Under the pieces are notes generated by a model, which searched no databases, had not been told where the DNA came from, and saw nothing but the letters and a program-made list of their open reading frames with translations. The position numbers were made by a program, and so were the translations under genes. 64,000 nt of DNA. Source: Escherichia coli. Its GTDB lineage: Bacteria > Pseudomonadota > Gammaproteobacteria > Enterobacterales > Enterobacteriaceae. This document shows positions 6,094-62,071 of the stretch, piece by piece; the stretch's first letter is position 1; the number at the start of each line of letters is the position of its first letter. The stretch lies in NCBI RefSeq assembly GCF_045037415.1, contig NZ_CP173438.1; one strand, written 5' to 3'.

Positions 6094-8895
6094 TTATTCG
6101 ACGTTCAGCGCGTCATTAACCAGATCTTGTTGCTGTTTCTGGTGAACGGACATATACCCTACCGCCGGAGAGGCGGAGGCCGGGCGGCCTGCATAACGCA
6201 GAGAAGCCCCAAACGGAATCACTTCACGGAAATGATGCTGGCTGCAGTACCATGCGCCCTGGTTGAGCGGCTCTTCCTGGCACCAGACAAAATCCTTGAC
6301 GTGAGCAAACTGCTGCAACACTTCCTGCATCGCTTTATGCGGGAACGGGTAGAGTTGCTCGATACGCACAATGGCGACATCGTGTTGATTGTTCTTACGA
6401 CGTTGTTCCAGCAGATCGTAATAAACCTTACCAGAACACATCACTACGCGCTTCACGCCCTTCGGATCAAGCTCGTCGATTTCACTGATGGCTGGCAGGA
6501 AGGTGCCGTTCGCCAGTTCTTCGAGGCTGGAAACCGCCAGCGGATGACGCAGCAGGGATTTCGGCGACATCACGACCAGTGGACGACGCATCCCGCGCAA
6601 CGCCTGACGACGCAGCATGTGGTAAACCTGTGCCGGGGTAGAAGGTACGCAAACCTGCATGTTTTGCTCAGCGCAAAGTTGCAGATAACGTTCCAGACGC
6701 GCGGAGGAGTGCTCCGGCCCCTGCCCTTCGTAACCGTGCGGCAGCAACATCACCAGGCCACACATCCGGCCCCATTTCTGTTCGCCAGAGGAGATGAACT
6801 GGTCGATAACCACCTGTGCACCGTTGGCGAAGTCACCGAACTGTGCTTCCCAGATGGTCAGGGTGCGTGGTTCTGCGGTGGCATAACCGTATTCAAACGC
6901 CAGTACGGCTTCTTCAGACAGTACAGAGTCCCAGACGCGGAACGCGCCCTGGCCGTTATGGATATGTTGCAGCGGCGTGTAAGTGGAACCGTTAGACTGG
7001 TTGTGGATCACCGCGTGGCGGTGGAAGAAGGTACCGCGACCGGAGTCTTCACCCGACAGGCGAACCGGAATGCCTTCGTCAACCAACGTGGCGTAAGCGA
7101 GGTTTTCCGCGCCGCCCCAGTCGAACAGTTTCTCACCGGCTGCCATCGCCTGGCGATCGCCATAAATTTTGGCAACGCGAGACTGCATTTCAACCGCTTC
7201 CGGCACCGTGCTGATGCGTTTAGCCAGTTCCTGCAGGCGCTTCATCTCAACTTTGTTCGGGTACTCTTCGTCCCATTCGTGGTTGAGGTACGGCGACCAG
7301 GTGAAAGAGTGCATGTTCATCGGACGCCACTCTGCTACAACGCAATCGCCAGCATCCAGCGCATCGCGGTACAGGTTAACCATCTCGGTGGCATCTTCCA
7401 GCGTCGCGACTTTTTCCTGCTCCAGCTTGTCAGCGTAGATTTTGCGCGGCGTCGGATGTTTTTTGATTTTCTGATACATCAGCGGCTGGGTTGCGCTCGG
7501 CTCGTCGGCTTCGTTGTGGCCGTGACGGCGGTAGCATACCAGGTCGATGAAGACATCACGTTTAAAGGTGTTACGGAAATCGAGCGCCAGACGGGTCACA
7601 AAGGCAACGGCTTCCGGATCATCCGCATTAACGTGGAAAATCGGTGCCTGAACCATCTTACCGATATCAGTACAGTACGGCGTCGAACGGGCATCCAGCG
7701 GGTTAGAGGTGGTGAAGCCAACCTGGTTGTTGATAACGATACGTACCGTACCGCCAACTTCATAACCACGCGCTTTCGACATGTTCAGGGTTTCCTGAAC
7801 TACGCCCTGCCCGGTCACTGCGGCGTCACCATGAATGGTGATTGGCAGCACTTTGTTGCTGCTCGGCTCATCAAGTCTGTCCAGACGGGCACGAACAGAA
7901 CCGATAACGACCGGGCTTACAATCTCAAGGTGAGACGGGTTAAACGCCAGCGCCAGGTGCACCAGGCCGCCATCGGTCTGGAAGTCAGACGAGAAGCCCA
8001 TGTGGTATTTCACGTCGCCCGTGCCGAGGTGTTCTTTATGTTTACCGGCAAACTCGTCGAACAAGTCTTGCGGTTTTTTACCCAGCACGTTCACCAGCAC
8101 GTTCAGACGACCACGGTGCGCCATCCCGAGAACCACTTCGCGGGTGCCGCTGTTGCCAGCGTGGCGGATCATCTCTTTAAGCATCGGGATTAACGCGTCA
8201 CCGCCTTCCAGCGAGAAGCGTTTTGCGCCAGGGAATTTTGCGCCAAGGTAACGTTCAAGGCCTTCAGCGGCGGTCAGTTCGCTTAAGAAGCGTTTTTTCT
8301 CTTCGCTATTGAAAGTCGCGCGACCAGACTCGATACGCTGTTGGATCCAGCGTTTTTCTTCGGTGCTGGTAATGTGCATATACTCGGCACCAATCGGGCC
8401 ACAGTAGGTTTGCTTGAGGGCTTCCAGCAGCTCGCCGAGTTTCATGGTTTCTTTGCCGCTGGCAAATGAACCGACGTTGAAGGTCTCCTGGAAGTCTGCT
8501 TCGGTCAGATCGTGGAAAGACGGATCCAGATCGGCCACTTTATCTTGCTGCCACAGTCCCAGCGGATCGAGATTCGCATGCTGGTGACCACGGAAGCGGT
8601 ATGCGTTAATGAGCTGCAGGACTTTAACCTGCTTCACATTGGTGTCAGGGTCGGAGATCGTTGAAGAGTAACGTGAAGCGTCTTTCGCCAGGCGGCGGAA
8701 ATATTCACGCGTTTGAGAGTGGAATTGATCCGGTTTGACTCCCGTACCAGGTAACTGCTGGAACGTCGAACGCCAGTTAGCGTCAACCGAGTCAGGATCG
8801 GTTAAGAAGTCTTCATAGAGCTGTTCTATCCAGCTCTGGTTTGCGCCAGAGAGGTAAGAAGAGTCCAACCAGGCTTTCAAAGCGCTGTTCTGCAT
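6094..8895 (-). CDS. sucA: 2-oxoglutarate dehydrogenase E1 component
   Basis: 933 aa; [32 protein letters not shown]-terminus. Confidence 0.97.
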
Positions 8896-51119: not shown

Positions 51120-52784
51120 TTACTCGCCTACTTTCGCCCAGGTATCACGCAGCCCAACGGTGCGGTTAAATACCGGTTTTTCCGCCGTAGAATGGCGGCT
51201 GTCGAGGCAGAAGTAACCTTCACGCTCAAACTGGAATGCTTTACCCGCAACCGCATCTTTCAGCGACGGTTCAGCAAAGCCCTGTTTGATCACCAGCGAT
51301 TCCGGGTTAATCACCGACAGGAAATCATCCGCAGCACCAGGGTTCGGCACGCTGAACAGACGGTCATACAAACGGATTTCAACCGGCAGCGCATGTGCCG
51401 CGCTCACCCAGTGAATAACACCTTTGACTTTACGACCATCTGCCGGATCTTTGCTTAAGGTGTCGGCGTCATAAGTACAGAAGATGGTGGTGATATTGCC
51501 TTCGGCATCTTTCTCCACGCGTTCTGCCTTAATGACGTAAGCATTACGCAGACGCACTTCTTTACCCAGCACCAGACGTTTGTACTGCTTGTTAGCTTCT
51601 TCGCGGAAATCGGCGCGATCGATCCAAATCTCACCGCTAAATGGCACCTGACGGCTGCCCATTTCCGGTTTATTCGGATGGTTCGGCATGGTAACCATTT
51701 CGCCTTCGCCCTGGTAGTTTTCGATAACCAGTTTCACCGGATCGATAACCGCCATTGCGCGCGGCGCATTTTCGTTGAGATCTTCACGGATGCAGGATTC
51801 CAGTGACGCCATCTCAATGGTGTTGTCCTGCTTGGTCACACCAATGCGTTTGCAGAACTCACGAATAGAAGCCGCAGTGTAACCACGACGACGCAGACCA
51901 GAAATGGTCGGCATACGCGGGTCATCCCAGCCTTCAACGTGCTTGTCGGTCACCAGCAGGTTCAGCTTACGCTTGGACATCACAGTGTATTCCAGATTCA
52001 GGCGCGAGAATTCGTACTGGCGCGGGTGAACAGGAATGGTGATGTTGTCCAGTACCCAGTCGTACAGACGACGGTTGTCCTGGAACTCAAGCGTACACAG
52101 AGAGTGCGTAATACCTTCCAGCGCATCGCTGATGCAGTGGGTGAAGTCGTACATCGGGTAGATGCACCACTTGTTGCCAGTCTGGTGGTGTTCAGCAAAC
52201 TTAATGCGGTACAGCACCGGATCGCGCATCACGATAAACGGCGAAGCCATGTCGATTTTCGCACGCAGGCAGGCTTTACCTTCTTCAAAACCGCCGGTAC
52301 GCATTTTCTCGAACAGCGCCAGGTTCTCTTCAACGCTGCGATCGCGGTACGGGCTGTTTTTACCCGGCTGCGTCAAGGTGCCGCGGTATTCGCGGATCTG
52401 TTCCGGCGTCAGTTCATCAACGTACGCCAGGCCTTTATTGATCAGTTCGATCGCATAGGCGTGGAGCTGATCAAAATAATCGGAGGAGTAACGGACGTTA
52501 CCAGACCAGTGAAAACCTAACCACTCTACGTCGTTTTTGATCGAATCGACATACTCGATATCTTCTTTTACCGGGTTAGTGTCGTCGAAACGCAGGTTGC
52601 ACTGGCCTTTATAGTCCTGGGCGATCCCGAAGTTCAGGCAGATAGATTTCGCATGGCCAATATGCAGATAGCCATTCGGCTCCGGCGGGAAACGGGTGTG
52701 TACTGTGGTGTGCTTACCACTGGCCAGATCTTCATCGATGATCTGACGGATAAAGTTAGTCGGGCGGGCTTCTGCCTCACTCAT
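51120..52784 (-). CDS. glnS: glutaminyl-tRNA synthetase
   Basis: 554 aa; class I HIGH motif ([14 protein letters not shown]) and MSK motif. Confidence 0.97.
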
Positions 52785-53003
52785 CGTGGATTCCTCAAAG
52801 CGTAAACAACGTATAACGGCGTATGATCTTATAAGCGGGACAGGCTGACAACTGTTAGTTAGCGAAAAAATGGTTTTGCGTAAGATATTGGGGCGTTTTC
52901 TGCGCTACTGCCAGCAGATCCTCGCGCTGGAAACGTAAGGCCAAACGTCGCCAGCCTGACGCATTTATTAAATTTCCGGATGAGCTGGCCGCAGAGTCGT
53001 AGA

Positions 53004-53765
53004 TTAGTCGGCTATGATTAAACGCGTCGACAAGGACGCAAGCGTTCTACGCGTCTGCCCATCAAGCTGACTATCCGTAATAATCTCTGTCAGTTCATTA
53101 AGATGCGCGATATTAAACAGCGACCATGAACCGTATTTTGAGCTGTCAGCCAGGAGAATTTTGCGCGAAGCATGCGCGATAAGATCGCGTTTTAGTGCGG
53201 CTTTCTCTTCCGTGGGTGCTGTAATACCCTTTTCAAGATCCCAGCTGTTACAGCTTAAAAATGCCACGTCCGGCCAGGTATTTTGCAGCAATTTACGACC
53301 ATGTTCGCCAATGCAGGACTGGCTGGAGTCGTCAATACGTCCGCCGATAATCGTCACTTCAATTTGCTTGAATTCAGCCAAAAAAAGCGCGATATGCAGG
53401 TCGCTTGTGATCACGCGAAGCGGTAAATGTGTAATCTGCCGCGCAAGTTCAATCATTGTCGTACCGGCATCAAGGACGACGGAATCCCCCGCTTTGACCA
53501 TTGACGCCGCTGCGCTGGCGATGGCATGTTTTTCCGCCAGGCTGCGCTGCATTTTCTCATGGGTAGTCGGTTGGGTAGGAATAAACCGGTTGAGAGTCAC
53601 ACCGCCGTGTGTACGGCTGATAACACCCTGCTCATCGAGTTTTATCAGGTCTCGACGAATCGTAGCCGGCGACGCATTGGTTACCGCCACCAGCTCATCT
53701 ACGGTGACCAGATTATGGCTTTTCAGGTAATCCATGATCTGCTCTAACCGGTTATATCCCTTCAT
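53004..53765 (-). CDS. DeoR-family transcriptional regulator
   Basis: 253 aa; N-terminal HTH ([17 protein letters not shown]) and C-terminal sugar-phosphate sensor domain. Confidence 0.85.
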
Positions 53766-53766
53766 T

Positions 53767-54753
53767 TTATTCTCGCGAAATCTGCATTGCTAACTGGATG
53801 GAAACTGCCATGCTCTCAGACTTGGCTTTTCCTGTCCAGGCAATATCAAACGCGGTGCCGTGGTCGGCAGAAGTGCGAATAAATGGCAACCCGGCGGTGA
53901 TATTCACCCCATCATAAAATCCAAGCAGTTTTAAAGGGATATGCCCCTGATCGTGGTACATAGCCACTACCATATCGAATAGCCCTTCATGGCATTGCAT
54001 AAACACGGTATCTGGCGGGCACGGGCCAGTAACATCAATATCTTCGGCCTGCATTGCTTCAATCGCAGGCGCGATAATCTCGATTTCCTCAGTGCCGAAT
54101 AAACCATGTTCCCCTGCATGTGGATTTACACCCGCCACGGCAATACGCGGACGCTCAATACCAACACGTTTCAGGAAGTGGTTCGCAACTCGAATAACCG
54201 TTTTGACCCTTTCACCATTCAAAGTATCCAGGAATTTACGCAGTGAGATGTGAGTCGAAATATGGATAACCTTGAGCTTCTCGGTATAGAGCACCATCGC
54301 GTACTCTTTGCTGCCGGTAAGATGGGCCAGCAATTCCGTATGCCCCGGATAGTTATGCCCGCCAAGATGCAGCGCTTCTTTATTCAGCGGCGCAGTGGCT
54401 ATGGCTTTCACCTCGCCTGATAAGGCCAGAGCCGTTGCACGTTTGATACAGCGATACGCTAAATCGCCTGCCACAGCCTGTACCACTCCGGGTGTCAGCG
54501 CATCGGGGTTAGCCAGCGGCTCATCCATCACGTTAATCACGCCGGGAGCAAAATGGGCGTCGCACACCTTTTGAATGACGCGTAACTCTGCCTGCGGCGT
54601 GATATTCATCGCCATAATACGTCGCAGCGTGCGCACACAGCCCACCACCACCACCGGGGCACCAGCAAGCCCGGCTTCGCTCAGGGATTTAATAATGATC
54701 TCCGGGCCAATACCCGCCGGATCGCCCATCGTTACCGCAATAATATTATTCAC
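53767..54753 (-). CDS. PdxA-family NAD-dependent dehydrogenase (PdxA2-like, 4-phospho-hydroxy-acid oxidative decarboxylase type)
   Basis: 328 aa; [21 protein letters not shown]-terminus typical of PdxA; 8-nt overlap with the upstream kinase. Confidence 0.85.
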
Positions 54754-55984
54754 TACGCTTCTCCTCGATAAAATTCAGAACCTGATGCAACGTGGTCTCA
54801 TCGCCAAACCCACCGGCTTTCGTCATCACCGAACGGGACCAGACGCCGCCCAGAAAGTGACCGTATGGAACGCATTGCGCCACCTTCCCCGTAATACGAA
54901 ATCCGGTCGCGCCTAACGCACTGGCTGTTGCCATTGCGACATCACCACCAGAGAGATAAAGCGCATCGGGCATTGCGCAAAGCAGAACTTGCCGGGTAAG
55001 TTCGCCAAGAAACCGGCAAATTTTTTCCCCAAGTGCAGCGCGACTCATCTGCCAACGCTGGCAAAGGGTGTCGATCTGATGCCTTGCTACAGAATCGTTA
55101 CAGGTGTGGACAATACAGTGGTCGCCTTTCTGCAAGGCCTGCACAATACGCGCGTCATAGTCACTGGCATTGCCTGCCAGAATGTGTTCAACATCGACGT
55201 ATATCTGTGTGATACGTGGGTGTGAATGAAGTGTGGCGATCTGCCGTTGAGCGATTTCGCTCATTGAACCAATAATGGCCAGCACGGTGGGTGGCGGCAT
55301 AATCGCGGAGCGCCGGGCAACGGCATCACAAATACCAGCGGAGCCGACCAGCAGCAGCGGTTGTTTAGCCTGCATCACAGCGGCAGCGATGCGATCCAGG
55401 TCGCTGTCCGTCTGCGCATCTATCACGCCAATCCACGGTTGCTCATAAGACAAATGGCTGAGCTGAGAAACCGTAACGGGCTGGCATGGAATGGCCGTCT
55501 GCAACCGGATGATGTCCGCAATTCGGGCGCTCAATACCGGGGTTTTCGGATCGCTAGCAAACTCGGTTTCCGTTATCCGCACACCGTTTACCCAACACTC
55601 ACCGGCCACTGTGGTCCTTCCCGCCTGAGGAAATGCGGGGGCAACCACTGCGCCCGTTATACCGCATGCCTTCATCAGGGCTTCAATTTCTGCGCCGATA
55701 TTGCCTCGCAGCGTGGAATCTATCTTTTTAATCACGAGCGGCGGGTTATTCGCCAGAGGGAGATGACTCATCAGCGAGGTTATTTTCATCGCCGCCAGCT
55801 TAGGATCCATCGCCCGACTGTCGCTGTTAATCACCCATACGCTGGCATCACCGCGATAAGGCATTTCAAAGGCCACATCAACTGTATGCCCCACCTGCGC
55901 CAGGCTTACCCCCGCGTCGTTGGCTCCCGTGAAATCATCGGCAACGATGAGAATGCTCGGCTTAGTGATTCCCTTTTCCATCAT
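54746..55984 (-). CDS. DUF1537-family four-carbon acid-sugar kinase
   Basis: ORF-track frame to 56023 (TTG); start placed at tandem Met MMEKGITKPSILIVADDFTGANDAG, typical of the family. Confidence 0.8.
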   Translation of the reverse strand: MMEKGITKPSILIVADDFTGANDAGVSLAQVGHTVDVAFEMPYRGDASVWVINSDSRAMDPKLAAMKITSLMSHLPLANNPPLVIKKIDSTLRGNIGAEIEALMKACGITGAVVAPAFPQAGRTTVAGECWVNGVRITETEFASDPKTPVLSARIADIIRLQTAIPCQPVTVSQLSHLSYEQPWIGVIDAQTDSDLDRIAAAVMQAKQPLLLVGSAGICDAVARRSAIMPPPTVLAIIGSMSEIAQRQIATLHSHPRITQIYVDVEHILAGNASDYDARIVQALQKGDHCIVHTCNDSVARHQIDTLCQRWQMSRAALGEKICRFLGELTRQVLLCAMPDALYLSGGDVAMATASALGATGFRITGKVAQCVPYGHFLGGVWSRSVMTKAGGFGDETTLHQVLNFIEEKRSE

Positions 55985-56019
55985 CACTCCAGGTTGTTTT
56001 ATGATAACAATGATTATAT

Positions 56020-56033
56020 TCAATCATGATTGA
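56020..56033. promoter_or_regulatory. Perfect 14-bp palindrome TCAATCA|TGATTGA, candidate operator
   Basis: Located about 35 bp upstream of the kinase start in the divergent intergenic region. Confidence 0.4.
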
Positions 56034-56116
56034 TTAAATGTGAGCAAGCTCAAGTTATTAATCACTCGAATAAATTATAAAATTAGACCATGTTACGTAG
56101 GCTACGGCATTTTGAA

Positions 56117-56132
56117 TGATTGAATTCAATCA
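56117..56132. promoter_or_regulatory. Perfect 16-bp palindrome TGATTGAA|TTCAATCA, candidate operator
   Basis: Same half-site as 56020..56033 in opposite arrangement; about 20 bp upstream of the Fe-ADH start. Confidence 0.4.
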
Positions 56133-56150
56133 CCAGAAGAGAGGTTATTT

Positions 56151-57308
56151 GTGGTAATTATCAATAGCACGATACTGAGCGGCGCAGGCGCTATCCCTTC
56201 CCTGACGTCGCTCTTACCCGACATCAGAAAAATGCTGCTGGTCACTGACCGTAATATTGCGCAGCTCGACGGTGTGCAGCAGATTCGCGCCTTACTGGAA
56301 AAGCACTGCCCGCAGGTTAACGTTATCGATAATGTGCCCGCAGAGCCCACGCATCATGATGTGCGCCAGCTAATGGATGCCCTTGGCGATGCCTCTTTTG
56401 ATGTGGTGGTCGGGATCGGCGGTGGCAGCGTGTTGGATGTGGCGAAGCTGCTATCGGTGCTTTGCCATCCACAATCACCGGGGCTGGATGCGCTGCTTGC
56501 GGGTGAAAAACCGACTCAGCGGGTGCAATCATGGTTGATTCCTACAACCGCCGGAACCGGCTCAGAAGCCACGCCGAATGCGATTCTGGCAATCCCTGAG
56601 CAAAGCACGAAGGTGGGTATTATTTCCCAGGTGCTGTTACCAGACTATGTGGCGCTTTTCCCGGAACTGACCACCAGTATGCCCGCGCATATTGCGGCGT
56701 CCACGGGCATTGATGCTCTTTGCCACTTACTGGAGTGTTTTACCGCGACCGTGGCAAATCCGGTCAGCGATAACGCGGCGCTGACTGGGTTAAGTAAACT
56801 TTTCCGGCACATTCAACCCGCCGTGAACGATCCTCAGGATCTGCGCGCAAAACTGGAAATGCTGTGGGCGTCTTACTATGGCGGCGTAGCGATAACCCAT
56901 GCGGGCACGCATCTCGTTCATGCGCTCTCCTACCCGTTAGGTGGCAAATATCATCTGCCGCATGGCGTCGCGAATGCCATCTTGCTGGCGCCGTGCATGG
57001 CGTTTGTTCGCCCCTGGGCGGTCGAGAAATTTGCCCAGGTCTGGGATTGCATTCCCGATGCGGAAACCGCCCTGAGCGCGGAAGAAAAATCTCATGCCCT
57101 GGTGACCTGGTTACAGGCATTAGTCAATCAACTCAAGCTACCCAACAATCTCGCGGATCTCGGCGTACCGCCAGAGGATATTGCCTCTCTGAGCGAGGCG
57201 GCACTGAACGTGAAGCGCCTTATGAACAATGTGCCGTGCCAGCTTGATCTACAGGACGTACAGGCCATTTACCAAACACTGTTTCCGCAACATCAATTTA
57301 AGGAATAA
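56151..57308 (+). CDS. iron-containing (group III) alcohol dehydrogenase
   Basis: 385 aa; GTG start with GAGAGG Shine-Dalgarno; GGGSVLD and metal-binding His motifs. Confidence 0.85.
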   Translation: MVIINSTILSGAGAIPSLTSLLPDIRKMLLVTDRNIAQLDGVQQIRALLEKHCPQVNVIDNVPAEPTHHDVRQLMDALGDASFDVVVGIGGGSVLDVAKLLSVLCHPQSPGLDALLAGEKPTQRVQSWLIPTTAGTGSEATPNAILAIPEQSTKVGIISQVLLPDYVALFPELTTSMPAHIAASTGIDALCHLLECFTATVANPVSDNAALTGLSKLFRHIQPAVNDPQDLRAKLEMLWASYYGGVAITHAGTHLVHALSYPLGGKYHLPHGVANAILLAPCMAFVRPWAVEKFAQVWDCIPDAETALSAEEKSHALVTWLQALVNQLKLPNNLADLGVPPEDIASLSEAALNVKRLMNNVPCQLDLQDVQAIYQTLFPQHQFKE

Positions 57309-57311
57309 ATC

Positions 57312-58199
57312 ATGCCGAAAACCATTGAAGGTGTATTAACCGCTATCGTCACCCCGTTTACCGCGACCGGCAGTCTGAATATCCCGGCGTTAAAAGTGCA
57401 GGTGAATCGTCAACTGGAAGCGGGTAACGCGATTTTTTGCGGCGGCACCAACGGCGAGTTTTTTGTGTTGAATGAACAGGAGAAGCTCAGCGTTACGCAA
57501 ACCTGCGTGGATGAAGTGGCTGGTCGTGCGCCAGTCGTGGCACACATTGGCGAGATCTCTACGCGCGAAACGATTCGTCTGGGTCAGCAGATTGAAAAAC
57601 TTGGCGTAGATGCCGTGTCGGTCATTGCCCCTTACTTCGTACCGCTGAAACAGGAAGAGTTGATTGCGCATTACAGCGCAATTGCCGACACACTGAGCAT
57701 TCCGATGTTTCTCTATAACATCCCGGCCCGCACTGGCAATACGATCCAGCCAGAAACCGCGCGTGCTCTGGCGTCGCACCCCAATATCATTGGGATTAAA
57801 GACAGCGACGGAAGCGACGAAAGCCTGAAGGGTTTTCTCGATGCGGTGCGCGACATTGACGGCTTTAATGTGCTCAACGGCCCGGATTCGCTGATCCATA
57901 AAGGGTTTGTCGAGGGATGTTCAGCCTGTATCTCTGGGCTCGCCAACGTCGCGCCGCGAGAAATCAATGCCATCTGGTCTCGCTTCCATGCCGGTGATAT
58001 TGAAGGGTCTTATGAAGCACAGGAGAGTGTAACGGGCCTGCGTACCGATCTTTATAAAGTAGCATTCTCCCCGGCTGCGGTGAAAAAAGCGTTGCAGCTT
58101 ATGGGGCATGATGTTGGTGATAGCCGCTACGCGGTTAATTTCACGCCTGAACAGATCAGCGAGATTCAACAAATTATTCGTCATTATAACATTAATTAA
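57312..58199 (+). CDS. DapA/NanA-family class I aldolase (pyruvate-lyase type)
   Basis: 295 aa; GTNGEF motif, Schiff-base lysine in IIGIKDS, Tyr in LYNIP. Confidence 0.85.
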   Translation: MPKTIEGVLTAIVTPFTATGSLNIPALKVQVNRQLEAGNAIFCGGTNGEFFVLNEQEKLSVTQTCVDEVAGRAPVVAHIGEISTRETIRLGQQIEKLGVDAVSVIAPYFVPLKQEELIAHYSAIADTLSIPMFLYNIPARTGNTIQPETARALASHPNIIGIKDSDGSDESLKGFLDAVRDIDGFNVLNGPDSLIHKGFVEGCSACISGLANVAPREINAIWSRFHAGDIEGSYEAQESVTGLRTDLYKVAFSPAAVKKALQLMGHDVGDSRYAVNFTPEQISEIQQIIRHYNIN

Positions 58200-58258
58200 A
58201 TTAACTCTATTATCCAGCCCGCTATAAAGTTTAGATAAAGAGAATAAAGGATTACCCC

Positions 58259-59017
58259 ATGTTTTTGTGGTTTATGCAGCCAGATATCTGGCTCACTTTA
58301 ATTACCCTCACCTTTCTGGAAATTATTCTTGGGGTGGATAATATTATTTTTCTTTCACTGGTGGTGGCAAAACTTCCGTTATCACAACAAAATATGGCGC
58401 GTAAACTGGGTTTAAGCTGCGCGATGATTATGCGGATATTATTGCTGATATCCATTGCGTGGCTTTCACATATTACCCAGCCGCTTTTTACCGTGCTGAC
58501 GCTGGAGATTTCGTTCCGCACGTTGATTCTGCTCGGGGGCGGGCTGTTCCTGATTTATAAAGCGATACAGGAGATACGCGAAGAGCTGTCGCCCGCGCAG
58601 GAAGACGAACATGGCAGCGGATCGCGGCAACTGTCGTTGTGCGGTGCCATTGTACAGATAATGCTGCTCGATATCGTGTTTAGCCTGGATTCGGTGATCA
58701 CCGCCGTCGGCCTTTCTCAGCATATATTTATCATGATTGCCGCCGTAATGATTGCCGTCGGTGTCATGATGTTTGCGGCGAAAACAATTGGTGATTTCGT
58801 TAACGCCACGCCGTCAATAAAAATACTGGCGTTAACCTTTTTATTGTTTGTCGGTGTATTGCTGGTTGCCGATAGTCTCAACATTCATATTGCCAAAGAG
58901 TATCTCTACTTCGCGATATTTTTCTCATTAAGTGTTGAGACACTCAATATTATCCGTGAAAGAAAAAATAAAAAAGTTTCGACATTGATCGAAACGCATG
59001 AATCGCACTCGCATTAA
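58259..59017 (+). CDS. TerC-family integral membrane protein (YgdQ-like)
   Basis: 252 aa; LGVDNIIFLSLVVAKLP and QIMLLDIVFSLDSVITAVGL motifs. Confidence 0.8.
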   Translation: MFLWFMQPDIWLTLITLTFLEIILGVDNIIFLSLVVAKLPLSQQNMARKLGLSCAMIMRILLLISIAWLSHITQPLFTVLTLEISFRTLILLGGGLFLIYKAIQEIREELSPAQEDEHGSGSRQLSLCGAIVQIMLLDIVFSLDSVITAVGLSQHIFIMIAAVMIAVGVMMFAAKTIGDFVNATPSIKILALTFLLFVGVLLVADSLNIHIAKEYLYFAIFFSLSVETLNIIRERKNKKVSTLIETHESHSH

Positions 59018-59052
59018 TAAATCTATTACCAACTTTAAGATGGAGTCTAACT

Positions 59053-60222
59053 ATGTCTGTAGCCCTTATTCGTGACGGCGTCATCCGTCCATCCGAAAAC
59101 GATTCGCATGTGCTTACCGCCATGCTGCCCTCGTCCTGCCCGCAAAACCACGCGGCGAATATTCTGCCTTTGCCGGATGGCGCGTTAATGTGCGTCTGGT
59201 TTGCGGGAACGCAGGAAGGTATTGCCGATATTTCTGTCTGGGGATCGCGATTGCCCGCTGGCGGAATGCAGTGGAGCGATGCGGCCAAACTTTCCCACGA
59301 TGACACGCGTTCAGAGCAAAACCCGGTGCTGTTTCTCGCGCCGGATAACGTGCTGTGGCTCCTATGGACCGCACAAATATCCGGTAATCAGGACACCGCC
59401 ATCGTCCGCTACCGTAAGTCAGACGACCTCGGACAAACCTGGGGCGAGATTGCCACCCTGCTTGATAAACCCGGTACGTTCATTCGACAGCCAATCACGG
59501 TGCTTGATAACGGCAACTGGCTGCTGCCCGTCTTTTATTGCCGTACCCAACCCGGCGAAAAATGGGTCGGCAATGATGATATCAGCGCAGTGAAAATTTC
59601 CGCTGACGGTGGTCACTCCTGGCGCGATGTCGAGGTGCCGCAAAGTCTCGGCTGTGTTCATATGAATATCACAATGTTGCACGACGGTACGTTGGTTGCT
59701 CTCTTTCGCAGCCGTTGGGCAGACAACATCTATATCAGCCATTCAGTGGACAACGGCGAGAGTTGGTCGGTGCCGCAAGCAACCGAATTGCCCAACAACA
59801 ATTCGTCTATTCAGGTAACGACGCTTGCCAGCGGCGAACTGGCGCTGGTGTACAACGCGATGAGTGCGGCAGGCGCAGTAGAACGTCGCGCGTCGCTTTA
59901 TGACGAAATCGACGATGGCGACGACAGCCGCAAAGAACCGACAGCCGTCGGACGCTCCGCTTTCTGGGGTGCCCCACGCGCGCCGATGACGGTAGCGATT
60001 TCTGCCGATGGTGGGAAAAGCTGGTCGTGGCGGCGCAATCTCGATGAAGGCGACGGCTACTGCATGACCAACAATTCCCTGGAAAAGCTAAATCGTGAGT
60101 TCTCCTACCCCAGCATCAAACAAAGCCCGGACGGTACGCTACATATCGCTTACACCTGGTGGCGTCAGGCCATCAAGTACGTACGCATCTCCCCCGAGTG
60201 GGTTAAGGGGCAGGCATCATGA
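59053..60222 (+). CDS. BNR/Asp-box repeat protein, sialidase-like beta-propeller, no signal peptide
   Basis: 389 aa; four Asp-boxes (SDDLGQTW, SADGGHSW, SVDNGESW, SADGGKSW); N-terminus not hydrophobic. Confidence 0.8.
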   Translation: MSVALIRDGVIRPSENDSHVLTAMLPSSCPQNHAANILPLPDGALMCVWFAGTQEGIADISVWGSRLPAGGMQWSDAAKLSHDDTRSEQNPVLFLAPDNVLWLLWTAQISGNQDTAIVRYRKSDDLGQTWGEIATLLDKPGTFIRQPITVLDNGNWLLPVFYCRTQPGEKWVGNDDISAVKISADGGHSWRDVEVPQSLGCVHMNITMLHDGTLVALFRSRWADNIYISHSVDNGESWSVPQATELPNNNSSIQVTTLASGELALVYNAMSAAGAVERRASLYDEIDDGDDSRKEPTAVGRSAFWGAPRAPMTVAISADGGKSWSWRRNLDEGDGYCMTNNSLEKLNREFSYPSIKQSPDGTLHIAYTWWRQAIKYVRISPEWVKGQAS

Positions 60223-60689
60223 TTATCGGTAATCTCAACCATTTGTCGCTGGCGGGGCTTCCTGCCTGGGTGAGAAATATTCTGCTGCGCCCGGAGTGTT
60301 CGTTATCGGCGTTATCCACCAGAGAGGACGGTCGCTGGCAACCTGAAGGATGTCGGTGGTTCTGCTCGCTGGGAACTTCAGACACGCAACCCGCCGAACT
60401 TCGCCATACGGAGTATCACCATCTATGGGCCGATATACAGGTGGTGATTACTGGTTGTGAGGGCATTAATGCGGGAACGCGGCCCATCGCTCGCGAAAAC
60501 GATGAAGAACGTAAGCCCGATCTGTTTATCGCCCCATCCCCTGAAAACAGTGTCGCCATCACCCTACACGCCGGTGATTTCGCCGTCTTTATGCCTGAGG
60601 AACCTCACCAGGCACTGTGCGCAATTGGCACGGCTACTTCAATACGCAAAGCGGTCTTTAAAGTACCGCGCGACATGCTGGAAGCCTAA
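60219..60689 (+). CDS. YhcH/YjgK/YiaL-family (DUF386) protein
   Basis: 156 aa; ATGA start/stop overlap with the BNR gene. Confidence 0.75.
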   Translation: MIIGNLNHLSLAGLPAWVRNILLRPECSLSALSTREDGRWQPEGCRWFCSLGTSDTQPAELRHTEYHHLWADIQVVITGCEGINAGTRPIARENDEERKPDLFIAPSPENSVAITLHAGDFAVFMPEEPHQALCAIGTATSIRKAVFKVPRDMLEA

Positions 60690-60702
60690 AAGGAGAGAAA
60701 AA

Positions 60703-61983
60703 ATGACAATGGAAATGATCCTGGCATTAGGAATACTGGTCCTGATGATCGTGCTGATCATGTCGGACAAAATGCCTTTTGGCGCACCGCCACTGCTTGC
60801 GTGTTTATTGCTGGTTGTATCGGGACTTTCGACCGTTCAACAGGCTTTTGCCGGATTCGTCAATCCAAGCGTGGTGATGATTGCAGGGTTTATGGTGGTC
60901 ATGGCGGCGCTACAAAAAACCCGGCTTATCAGCAACGTTAAATCTGCGATGATAAGCCTGGTCAATAAAGGCAGTTACCGCAGCTATGGGCTGTTATTAG
61001 TCATTGTTATGCTGGGTGCCAGTCTTGCCGGCACCGGAGCGACCGGTTATTACGTGCTAATTCTGTCGCTGGTATCCACCATTCCGTACAGTAAAAAGCT
61101 ACCAACATCGAAATTAATGATGCCCCTGGGATTTGCCACCAACCACCCGCTTCTTCCTATCAATCTCGCGCTTCTCTTTGGCGTTACGGCGACCGTACTC
61201 GAAACCGCGGGGTTTCATCAGGCGATTTCGATGGGGCGCTTTGCGCTGGTGAATCTCATCATGTCAGCGGCTTTCCTCGCATGGAGTCTTATTGCCTACC
61301 GTTTTCTTCCGGATCATCCCATTGCGGATGCTTCCGAGGATGCGCTGGCGGCACGCGAGGAAACGTTTAACGCCCTTCCTGCCTGGAAAGAATATTGCAC
61401 TATTGCCGCATTCGCTGTCAGCGTTATCGGCATGATGCTAATGAACATTCTGGGAAATATCGCCTTCGTTATTCCGGGTCTTGCGGGTGCGTTTGTTCTG
61501 ATGATCGATGTACTGGACTTCAAAGAAGTTCGCGATCATATGGGGGCTCCGGTCATTTTAATGATGGCGGGGGTGATCGGTGTAGCTGATGCACTGGCGG
61601 GCACCGGCTTTACGGCGATGGTTGGCGATGCCGTTGCAGGTGTGCTCGGTTCTGGCGTCTCACCGTTTGTATTTATTGTCGCCTTTGCTTTGCTTACCAG
61701 TACCTGCGCCACCTTCACGGGTTCGAATATGGGGTCAGTATATATTTTTGCCCCCATCGCCATTGCCGCCTGTACTAGCCTTGGGCTTAACCCGACCGCT
61801 GCCGCGATTGCGGTGGTGATTTCTGGCTGGAATGGCGGCTATATGCCTATTGACGGAATGCCAGCCATGATCCTCGGAATGGGGAAATACAAACTTCCCG
61901 AATTCTGGGTGTTCTCTGTACCAATGTATCTCATCCGCATTCTGGCGCTTTGTGCAGGCGCTGTTTTTATCTTCCCAATGTAA
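60703..61983 (+). CDS. polytopic permease, ion-transporter superfamily (DASS/CitMHS-like), substrate unknown
   Basis: ORF-track frame from 60457 overlaps upstream genes; start placed at ATG 60703 (MTMEMILALGILVL) after AAGGAGAG Shine-Dalgarno. Confidence 0.75.
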   Translation: MTMEMILALGILVLMIVLIMSDKMPFGAPPLLACLLLVVSGLSTVQQAFAGFVNPSVVMIAGFMVVMAALQKTRLISNVKSAMISLVNKGSYRSYGLLLVIVMLGASLAGTGATGYYVLILSLVSTIPYSKKLPTSKLMMPLGFATNHPLLPINLALLFGVTATVLETAGFHQAISMGRFALVNLIMSAAFLAWSLIAYRFLPDHPIADASEDALAAREETFNALPAWKEYCTIAAFAVSVIGMMLMNILGNIAFVIPGLAGAFVLMIDVLDFKEVRDHMGAPVILMMAGVIGVADALAGTGFTAMVGDAVAGVLGSGVSPFVFIVAFALLTSTCATFTGSNMGSVYIFAPIAIAACTSLGLNPTAAAIAVVISGWNGGYMPIDGMPAMILGMGKYKLPEFWVFSVPMYLIRILALCAGAVFIFPM

Positions 61984-61991
61984 TCTCAGAC

Positions 61992-62027
61992 AAAAAAAGC
62001 GGCAGAGAAGATCCCTGCCGCTTTTTA
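61992..62027 (+). terminator. Intrinsic terminator of the island-B plus-strand operon
   Basis: aaaaaaagcggcag-agaagatcc-ctgccgcttttt hairpin with a T-run. Confidence 0.65.
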
Positions 62028-62032
62028 TTGTT

Positions 62033-62057
62033 GGATGCGACGCTGCCGCGTCGCATC
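62033..62057. repeat. REP-like palindrome between the island-B operon and nagE
   Basis: ggatgcgacgc-tgc-cgcgtcgcatc. Confidence 0.4.
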
Positions 62058-62071
62058 AGACATAAAGCAGA

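Follow-up and report, generated by a model that had tools for sequence, protein, structure and literature searches.

A nine-gene island between glnS and nagE of Escherichia coli: a predicted D-threonate module beside a candidate operon for a sialic-acid-like acid sugar

Introduction

This study concerns a nine-gene island that lies between glnS and nagE in a 64,000-nucleotide stretch of an Escherichia coli genome (NCBI RefSeq assembly GCF_045037415.1, contig NZ_CP173438.1), which was analysed as a whole and is called the window below. Among its closest described relatives are pathways for small acid sugars. It is established that D-threonate is phosphorylated to 4-phospho-D-threonate and converted to dihydroxyacetone phosphate (DHAP), and that two enzymes and a permease suffice for growth on D-threonate (PMC10079672). 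The pathways of the DUF1537 kinases, including that of the D-threonate kinase DtnK and the D-threonate 4-phosphate dehydrogenase PdxA2, have been summarised (PMC10079672, PMC7954711). The tetronate (OtnK, ygbJKLMN-type, as in K-12) and D-apionate (OiaK) kinases belong to the same DUF1537 superfamily as the island kinase, and they too phosphorylate small acid sugars. Their pathways have isomerases, decarboxylases or RuBisCO-like proteins as partners where the island has PdxA2; apiose is also a sugar of the plant pectin rhamnogalacturonan II (RG-II).

Three further systems bear on the island: the sialic-acid (nan) system, the aldolase DapA and the breakdown of RG-II. DapA joins pyruvate and a four-carbon aldehyde-acid to a seven-carbon diacid. 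A Schiff-base lysine, a tyrosine, a threonine and an arginine have functional roles in this enzyme; the arginine binds the carboxylate of aspartate semialdehyde, a four-carbon aldehyde-acid, and the second tyrosine of the 'PYY' motif is a member of the catalytic triad. In the GH33 sialidases, the tyrosine of the 'AYSEM' stretch is the nucleophile and the glutamate of 'VEATV' is its partner. RG-II, described as the most complex plant polysaccharide, holds 3-deoxy-D-lyxo-heptulosaric acid (Dha) and 3-deoxy-D-manno-octulosonic acid (Kdo), and the routes that other microbes use for such acidic RG-II by-products are undescribed (preprint 10.64898/2026.03.13.711244). Dha forms part of side chain D (Araf-Dha), which mild heat frees from an RG-II oligosaccharide and which BT1020 removes in Bacteroides; mild acid frees it as well, and treatment with BT1020 yields L-arabinose (preprint 10.64898/2026.03.13.711244).

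We propose that the nine island genes may form one DeoR-controlled regulon that imports a sialic-acid-like acid sugar and degrades it to pyruvate, DHAP and CO2. This proposal is tentative, at a little less than an even chance in our judgement, and Dha as the particular substrate is a possible but rather more doubtful choice. What was already known is that the island is on record as an uncharacterised region and that two of its genes can be named by homology. What is new is the operon of six genes together with the composite pathway, which the sources searched do not describe.

Results

Kinase and PdxA2 form a predicted D-threonate module

Nine intact open reading frames (ORFs) fill the glnS–nagE interval and agree base for base with the RefSeq annotation of an identical E. 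coli chromosome, in the families and the two divergent units named in the original prediction. The features of the interval are as follows (positions counted from the first letter of the window).

53004–53765, minus strand: DeoR/GlpR-family regulator (ORF, RefSeq name)
53767–54753, minus strand: PdxA2, D-threonate 4-phosphate dehydrogenase (NCBIfam NF002891)
54746–55981, minus strand: DUF1537 four-carbon acid-sugar kinase, annotated DtnK, D-threonate kinase (NCBIfam NF047819)
55982–56150, no strand: divergent control region with two TGATT-N6-AATCA palindromes, the candidate DeoR operator
56151–57308, plus strand: iron-containing alcohol dehydrogenase, Fe-ADH (ORF; NCBIfam matches below cut-offs)
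57312–58199, plus strand: class I aldolase of the DHDPS/NanA family with a DapA-type arginine (dapA and NanA models, both below cut-off)
58259–59017, plus strand: TerC-family membrane protein (NCBIfam YkoY subfamily below cut-off; Pfam TerC on orthologues)
59053–60222, plus strand: BNR_2 sialidase-fold protein, predicted cytoplasmic, with an altered catalytic set
60219–60689, plus strand: YhcH/YjgK/YiaL-family protein (TIGR00022)
60703–61983, plus strand: SLC13-type permease of the ion-transporter superfamily (RefSeq name; Pfam Na_sulph_symp and CitMHS on orthologues)
61994–62026, no strand: hairpin terminator, backbone and not island (also in the K-12 spacer; inverted-repeat scan)
62029–62062, no strand: REP-like palindrome, backbone and not island (also in the K-12 spacer; inverted-repeat scan)

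The genes are tightly packed, as had been claimed: the gaps within the two units are, in order, 1, -8, 3, 59, 35, -4 and 13 nt, and a purine-rich Shine-Dalgarno-like stretch precedes all nine start codons.

The kinase passes the D-threonate kinase equivalog (531.3 bits against a cut-off of 450), and PdxA2 passes the D-threonate 4-phosphate dehydrogenase equivalog (679.2 bits against 583) and also exceeds the cut-off of the generic PdxA model TIGR00557, with 369 bits. The scores of the kinase with the OtnK and OiaK models are 104 bits (cut-off 350) and 27.6 bits (cut-off 700). Curated homology thus identifies the pair as the known D-threonate module, with DHAP and CO2 as the predicted output. 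The whole gene set had been taken for an uncharacterised system; this stands for the six plus-strand proteins, none of which exceeds any curated NCBIfam equivalog cut-off, but not for the kinase and the PdxA-like dehydrogenase.

As in the described DtnK–PdxA2 pair, the two island genes are translationally coupled, with an overlap of 8 nt between the kinase stop and the PdxA2 start, and a DeoR gene is adjacent. Unlike that pair, they are tied to six more genes under a shared operator, and the island has no dedicated KdgT-type D-threonate permease. The two genes adjoin in most related loci, and on the Ralstonia solanacearum megaplasmid they are fused, within the cluster, into a single 766-aa ORF annotated 'hypothetical protein' (locus L091 of our comparison, 6115–8415). 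PdxA2 is 75.4% identical to the characterised P58718, the kinase only 40.4% to the characterised Salmonella Q8ZRS5 (PMC12928451, Table 5). Between E. coli and Klebsiella or Salmonella (L003, L008, L014, L088), the kinase is only 51–53% identical, against 78% for PdxA2, 82–86% for the sialidase-fold protein and 79–86% for the DeoR protein; by this comparison, the kinase evolves much faster than its partner genes.

A conserved palindrome in the divergent spacer

The 169-bp spacer between the two units holds a perfect palindrome, TGATTGAATTCAATCA (56117–56132), and a second copy, TGATTATATTCAATCA (56011–56026). With up to three mismatches allowed, the window has 3 matches to the palindrome, against 0.38 expected. 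TGATT-N6-AATCA recurs in the same kinase/Fe-ADH spacer in 43 loci, ranging from Enterobacterales to Vibrio, Gilliamella, Tolumonas and Aeromonas, which is good phylogenetic footprinting for a shared candidate operator, presumably of the DeoR protein. A conserved palindrome in the spacer that the two operons share argues for one regulon in which both operons would serve one pathway. We presume that the DeoR protein represses both operons; its best NCBIfam matches are AgaR, GlpR and YgbI, all below cut-off. Scans for consensus promoters and terminators gave no enrichment over shuffled sequences, and an Rfam search gave no match, with no riboswitch upstream of the TerC gene.

Aldolase and alcohol dehydrogenase

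The aldolase scores 188.9 bits with the dapA model TIGR00674 (cut-off 206.15), and 142 and 108.6 bits with the NanA models NF003164 (cut-off 281) and TIGR00683 (cut-off 382). It aligns best with true DapA, which supplies both its top family model and its top neighbour in the Protein Data Bank (PDB). Its residues K163, Y135, T46 and R140 align with their counterparts in the DapA proteins of Staphylococcus aureus and Mycobacterium tuberculosis, and among 62 orthologues K163 and Y135 are kept in all, T46 in 60 and R140 in 55. R140 aligns with the arginine of the DapA 'YNVPSRT' motif; in the solved NanA, this position is Leu142 ('YNIPALSG' versus 'YNIPARTG'), with identical spacing to the lysine. 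Compared with DapA, then, the island enzyme keeps the lysine, the tyrosine, the threonine and the carboxylate-binding arginine. It differs in its score below the DapA cut-off, in having Phe109 in place of the second 'PYY' tyrosine and in its catabolic, inducible context, where it presumably works in the cleavage direction. From its residues, the aldolase looks built for the reverse of a DapA-type reaction on a hydroxylated analogue.

The best NCBIfam matches of Fe-ADH are ErcA, lactaldehyde reductase and 4-hydroxybutyrate dehydrogenase (213–222 bits, all below cut-offs), and its PDB neighbours are methanol dehydrogenases, lactaldehyde reductases and 1,3-propanediol oxidoreductase. The GGGS motif of the cofactor site and D188, H192, H257 and H271, which we take as the metal ligands, are invariant in 59 orthologues. 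We propose that the enzyme acts as an aldehyde-acid reductase.

Related clusters in other genomes

Genomes were scanned for homologues of the sialidase-fold protein with a conserved block from a 12-sequence alignment. The protein is 76–86% identical in Klebsiella, Kosakonia, Pantoea, Yersinia and Aeromonas, among others, and 60–70% identical in Bacillus, Paenibacillus, Bradyrhizobium, Methylobacterium, Propionivibrio, Gilliamella, Lonepinella and Vibrio. Plasmids or chromids that carry a homologue number 322 and belong mostly to Rhizobium, Sinorhizobium, Pantoea, Ralstonia and Agrobacterium. Gene content was compared in 84 loci, which are the closest relatives of the sialidase-fold gene and not an unbiased sample. 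Found near that gene were the following.

Aldolase: 62 of 84 loci (ORF clustering)
PdxA2: 60 of 84 loci
Fe-ADH: 59 of 84 loci
Short-chain dehydrogenase/reductase (SDR) of 227 aa: 59 of 84 loci
DUF1537 kinase: 58 of 84 loci
SSF symporter: 56 of 84 loci
YhcH-family protein: 50 of 84 loci
DeoR regulator: 46 of 84 loci
TerC protein: 6 of 84 loci
SLC13-type permease: 6 of 84 loci

The 65 loci with full flanks give similar proportions, and the genes are ordered differently among gamma-, beta- and alphaproteobacteria and Firmicutes. Most often the cluster reads DeoR< PdxA2< kinase< Fe-ADH> aldolase> SSF> BNR> YhcH> SDR>. In E. coli, TerC stands in the place of the SSF symporter and the SLC13-type permease in that of the SDR, which is absent; this form is also found in Klebsiella michiganensis, K. 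spallanzanii, Salmonella enterica subsp. salamae, Kluyvera and, with its genes rearranged, in Aeromonas. In this comparison, the gene set of E. coli is a minority variant of a far more widespread cluster, mainly of plant-associated bacteria.

The variants separate a core from its front end. Citrobacter has the kinase, PdxA2 and DeoR genes opposite Fe-ADH, the aldolase, a D-2-hydroxyacid dehydrogenase and an MFS transporter of the D-galactonate-transporter family, and has neither the BNR gene nor the YhcH gene (in C. werkmanii, L089 4404–8832); so reduced a variant points to another way of entering the core pathway. In Ralstonia, the cluster consists of the aldolase, Fe-ADH, the fused kinase::PdxA2, SSF, BNR, DeoR and SDR genes. 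In Pantoea stewartii and P. ananatis (L007, L016), the kinase and DeoR genes were not detected, while PdxA2 and the plus-strand genes are kept; homologous Pantoea copies lie on plasmids of about 270–300 kb (H31–H33). A trio of SSF, sialidase-fold and SDR genes, with no aldolase, Fe-ADH, kinase or PdxA2 gene within 10 kb, occurs in Pantoea (L029, L030, L032, L033, L063), where it adjoins a tartrate/D-malate dehydrogenase gene and that of its LysR regulator, and in Bradyrhizobium (L073–L086). Because of this co-occurrence and these variant clusters, the aldolase and Fe-ADH belong with the kinase and PdxA2. The sialidase-fold and YhcH-family proteins would then be a front end, and the carrier appears to be interchangeable.

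The carriers found elsewhere are the SSF symporter, a TAXI-TRAP system (Vibrio and Lonepinella), the MFS transporter and the SLC13-type permease; TRAP, MFS and SLC13 are typical carboxylate carriers. Sinorhizobium meliloti, where gene content was determined by tblastn on account of the high-GC DNA, has a Dpp-type ATP-binding cassette (ABC) system with a family-5 solute-binding protein. There SMb20144, which by accession order would be the binding protein of the cluster, has only the generic label 'carbohydrates, org. acids, alcohols'. The Aeromonas cluster has an additional KdgM-family porin. The TerC protein scores 85 bits with the YkoY subfamily model (cut-off 138.5); its gene, which takes the SSF slot of the common form, accompanies the SLC13-type permease in other genera as well.

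Most hosts live in association with plants or degrade pectin: soft-rot and epiphytic Enterobacterales, rhizobia, Ralstonia, Bacillus, Paenibacillus and Gilliamella, the bee-gut Gilliamella being a pectin degrader. In Pectobacterium and Dickeya, the cluster is flanked by genes for a choline lyase and a chemoreceptor.

Sialidase-fold and YhcH-family proteins

The sialidase-fold protein matched no NCBIfam family and, in a single-sequence search, no PDB entry. Its similarity to sialidases is at profile level only (E = 4e-13, 12–19% identity), and it has the GH33-like six-bladed beta-propeller fold. BT_1020 of Bacteroides is the enzyme that releases Dha from RG-II side chain D (Dha hydrolase, CAZy GH143). 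Its solved chain from Bacteroides thetaiotaomicron (PDB 5mqs), which is labelled 'Sialidase', has the same fold as the island protein.

Residues R219 and R309 align with two of the sialidase arginines, and Y352 with the tyrosine of the 'AYSEM' stretch. The N-terminal 'RIP' strand is outside the alignment, and the invariant H33 ('QNHAAN') is the likely counterpart of the first sialidase arginine. At the position of the 'VEATV' glutamate, the island protein reads 'VHM', with H203 in 83 of 83 orthologues, and the tyrosine/glutamate pair of sialidases is thus not present. All twelve candidate active-site residues that were checked are invariant in the family. By eye, the N-terminus has no signal-peptide-like hydrophobic stretch. 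With its catalytic set so altered, the enzyme may follow non-canonical chemistry, for example by hydrating or opening an anhydro, ene or lactone form.

The YhcH-family protein exceeds the cut-off of TIGR00022 (94.9 bits against 45.5) and falls short of that of the NanQ anomerase equivalog (90.6 against 160); E65, H67, D72, E81 and H130 are invariant in 50 orthologues. From its family, we propose that it is an anomerase or ring-opener for the aldolase substrate.

Like the nan system, the island thus combines a carrier, a sialidase-fold enzyme, a YhcH-family protein and a class I pyruvate lyase. In contrast to that system, no island protein reaches a Nan equivalog cut-off, the nanK and nanE families (N-acetylmannosamine kinase and epimerase) are missing among the nine genes, Arg140 stands for the Leu142 of NanA, the sialidase-fold enzyme is predicted to be cytoplasmic with its altered catalytic set, and the downstream fragment would be handled as a four-carbon acid.

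Discussion

In the pathway that we propose, the front end follows the logic of sialic-acid catabolism and the back end is the D-threonate pathway, and a 3-deoxy-hept-2-ulosaric acid would be the simplest molecule to connect the two. The SLC13-type permease, possibly with the TerC protein, would import a 3-deoxy-2-ulosaric acid of seven carbons, either as such or in a bound or anhydro form, with Dha as the best candidate. In the cytoplasm, the sialidase-fold enzyme may free or convert the import to the plain keto-acid sugar, which is the least certain step. The YhcH-type protein would then open the ring, as NanQ does with sialic acid. To judge from its conserved residues, the DapA-like aldolase would cut between C3 and C4, giving pyruvate and a four-carbon aldehyde-acid, which Fe-ADH may reduce to D-threonate. 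In the last step, by known chemistry and curated homology, DtnK would phosphorylate D-threonate and PdxA2 would oxidatively decarboxylate 4-phospho-D-threonate to DHAP and CO2. In the Citrobacter variant, an imported 3-deoxy-aldaric acid could, speculatively, be oxidised at C2 to the same open-chain keto-diacid.

The choice of Dha follows from stereochemistry. By our own derivation, C3–C4 cleavage of Dha leaves C5 and C6 in the D-threo configuration, so that the reduced product would be D-threonate specifically. This match appears non-trivial, because we know of no other natural heptulosaric acid. The host range fits a plant-wall substrate. In the literature searched on heptulosaric acid, no paper seems to treat its catabolism, as far as the listed titles and opening parts of abstracts show. 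On paper, routes through hexarates (tartronate semialdehyde), aceric acid and Kdo were also considered and rejected, since they yield no four-carbon acid for the kinase and PdxA2.

Several observations weigh against this pathway or against parts of it. Only gene content and stereochemistry point to the substrate, and the gene content comes from a sample chosen for its closeness to the sialidase-fold gene. At 40% identity to DtnK, the kinase may act on D-erythronate or another C4 or C5 acid. The permease scores 55.6 bits with the DASS model TIGR00785 (cut-off 198.6), and its orthologues have superfamily-level Pfam matches only, which leaves the argument for a dicarboxylate carrier weak; the nearest family matches of the SSF symporter, themselves weak, are pantothenate and acetate carriers, that is, carriers of mono-carboxylates. 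The commonest form of the cluster has the SSF symporter and an SDR that has no role in the scheme and does not occur in E. coli, and TerC fits no assigned step. Two canonical sialidase residues seem to be replaced by histidine, thus the chemistry may be other than hydrolysis, and a cytoplasmic glycosidase-like enzyme fits poorly behind carriers for monosaccharide-sized molecules. The link to pectin through neighbouring genes is weak as well: GH28 genes lie near the cluster in 7 loci and have no operator, and in Bacillus they are split from it by an unrelated iron/B12-type ABC system.

Other readings have to be weighed against one regulon for a Dha-like substrate. The island might consist of two separate units, a plain D-threonate module (kinase, PdxA2, DeoR and the SLC13-type permease) and an unrelated operon for a sialic-acid-like compound. 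A permease and the two enzymes are indeed enough for growth on D-threonate (PMC10079672), and in some Pantoea and Bradyrhizobium loci the sialidase-fold, SSF symporter and SDR genes stand with no kinase and PdxA2 genes nearby. However, the two gene sets are linked time and again, in many lineages and in shuffled order, the shared divergent spacer holds a single conserved operator, Citrobacter retains Fe-ADH and the aldolase with the kinase pair, and in Ralstonia the fused kinase–PdxA2 gene lies between those for Fe-ADH and the symporter; we consider such a split unlikely. The substrate might instead be a mono-acid ulosonic acid, such as Kdo, 3-deoxy-heptulosonic acid or a KDN-like compound (KDN, 2-keto-3-deoxynononic acid), from which the aldolase would free a neutral sugar that Fe-ADH reduces or another enzyme oxidises. 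Kdo aldolase (EC 4.1.2.23), long an orphan enzyme and cited without a gene (PMC12199768), could then have its gene in this cluster. Bacteroides and Flavobacteria free Kdo from RG-II, and other microbes consume it by undescribed routes (preprint 10.64898/2026.03.13.711244); moreover, the commonest carrier is the SSF symporter, and the SDR could oxidise a tetrose to a tetronate. Kdo cleavage would, however, give D-arabinose, a five-carbon sugar of no use to a four-carbon acid kinase and PdxA2, the E. coli variant does not have the SDR that the oxidative route requires, and the aldolase has a carboxylate-binding arginine where NanA has none. A mono-acid substrate is improbable on this evidence.

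Two readings are already in print or in the annotation. The paper on strain BEN2908, after Thiaville 2016, places the kinase and PdxA2 in vitamin B6 metabolism, where they would recycle 4-hydroxy-L-threonine into the pyridoxal 5'-phosphate (PLP) pathway (PMC12928451). DUF1537 kinases are able to phosphorylate 4-hydroxythreonine (PMC7954711), and PdxA2 does exceed the generic PdxA cut-off. The D-threonate-4-phosphate dehydrogenase model scores far higher, though (679 versus 369 bits), later work treats PdxA2 as catabolic (PMC9997740), and a salvage role would leave the co-regulated carrier, aldolase and reductase unexplained, making this role very unlikely. The RefSeq names of the BNR gene product, 'sialidase family protein / exo-alpha-sialidase', together with the GH33-like fold and the YhcH-type and NanA-like partners, might point to a true sialidase in an island that scavenges N-acetylneuraminic acid, for host-glycan foraging or virulence in extraintestinal pathogenic E. 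coli. This is hardly credible: no signal-peptide-like stretch is seen at the N-terminus, the first arginine and the glutamate of the catalytic set are apparently replaced, the NanA and NanQ models stay below their cut-offs and nanK and nanE are absent among the nine genes, the aldolase pocket has arginine for the leucine of NanA, and the hosts are mostly plant and soil bacteria.

If the regulon does degrade Dha, it would be the first catabolic pathway for this RG-II-specific heptulosaric acid and would fill a gap in the final mineralisation of RG-II. It would also provide a natural source of D-threonate, thus explaining why D-threonate catabolic genes exist. E. coli of the phylogroup-B2/ST131 type would gain a private nutrient, freed from dietary pectin by Bacteroides or by cooking, and the pathway suggests a diet-dependent niche for successful gut-colonising lineages. 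At the same time, the cytoplasmic sialidase-fold enzyme, with two catalytic residues changed to histidine, would have a new, non-canonical reaction. Whichever substrate proves right, a conserved and widespread module and a family of sialidase-fold enzymes emerge from the comparative data.

Borders, distribution and origin of the island

The interval is flanked by glnS (51120–52784, minus strand) and nagE (from 62072, minus strand). In a K-12 derivative, these two genes are neighbours with a 202-bp spacer, as had been stated for K-12, and the spacer seems permissive for insertions. A 9.3-kb island had been predicted at 52785–62071. The accessory block is real, but these coordinates are those of the whole glnS–nagE interval: K-12 homology stops at 52860 and restarts at 61989, so that the insert, by its BLASTN junctions, is 52861–61988 and has 9,128 bp in the place of 43 bp of the K-12 spacer. 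The hairpin at 61994–62026, originally taken for the terminal terminator of the island, also occurs in K-12 and hence belongs to the backbone; the REP-like palindrome at the right border is indeed there, but it is backbone too. No integrase or transposase ORF lies in the island, a tRNA search found none, as predicted, and no direct repeats were found at the junctions; the island thus does not have the marks of a mobile island. Its GC content is near that of the flanks, except for the TerC gene (0.44, against 0.50–0.56 for its eight island neighbours).

Of 5,426 complete E. coli genomes, 1,046 (about 19%) carry the island, always on the chromosome. Some part of it is found in 1,048 genomes and the intact island in 1,046 of these, with at least 99% identity in 1,035, which bears out the view of it as an accessory but intact system. 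The window matches O25b:H4-ST131 genomes such as EC958 with 100% identity; ST131 (EC958) and further extraintestinal pathogenic strains are among those that carry the intact system. In the literature searched, the function of the island is undescribed, and only a 2026 comparative paper on BEN2908 lists it, as 'GR 6 nagE..glnS' among uncharacterised features (PMC12928451). That paper records GR 6 in all seven comparison strains: APEC O1, IMT5155, RS218, IHE3034, 78-Pyelo, CFT073 and AIEC LF82 (PMC12928451). The sources searched hold no identical cluster whose function has experimental support, in keeping with the prediction that the gene combination is uncharacterised.

In Klebsiella, Enterobacter, Leclercia, Kosakonia, Citrobacter and Salmonella salamae (L003, L008–L015, L019–L024, L028, L088, L089), the cluster occupies a fixed site, different from that in E. 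coli, which is bounded by the marC/marRAB side and by a LysR gene followed by an aldehyde-dehydrogenase gene; in Salmonella and Citrobacter, a glutaminase gene also comes next. A 34-bp remnant at the left junction of the E. coli island (52897–52930) resembles the gene of the LysR family that borders the cluster of Salmonella, Citrobacter and Klebsiella, with 82–88% identity by BLASTN to the LysR gene region of L003, L088, L089, L056 and others. So short a match is only a hint of the island's origin. The island DNA is only about 70–76% identical to its Salmonella, Citrobacter and Klebsiella counterparts, and because of this divergence and the LysR-like remnant, taken together, the sequences suggest an old acquisition from a mar-adjacent enterobacterial locus. 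As part of the best explanation, the E. coli island would be a stably inherited old acquisition, one variant of the cluster that is widespread mainly in plant-associated bacteria.

In island-free E. coli genomes, the glnS–nagE spacer sometimes holds an IS200C or ISApl1 insertion, and a small 'hypothetical protein' is often annotated there.

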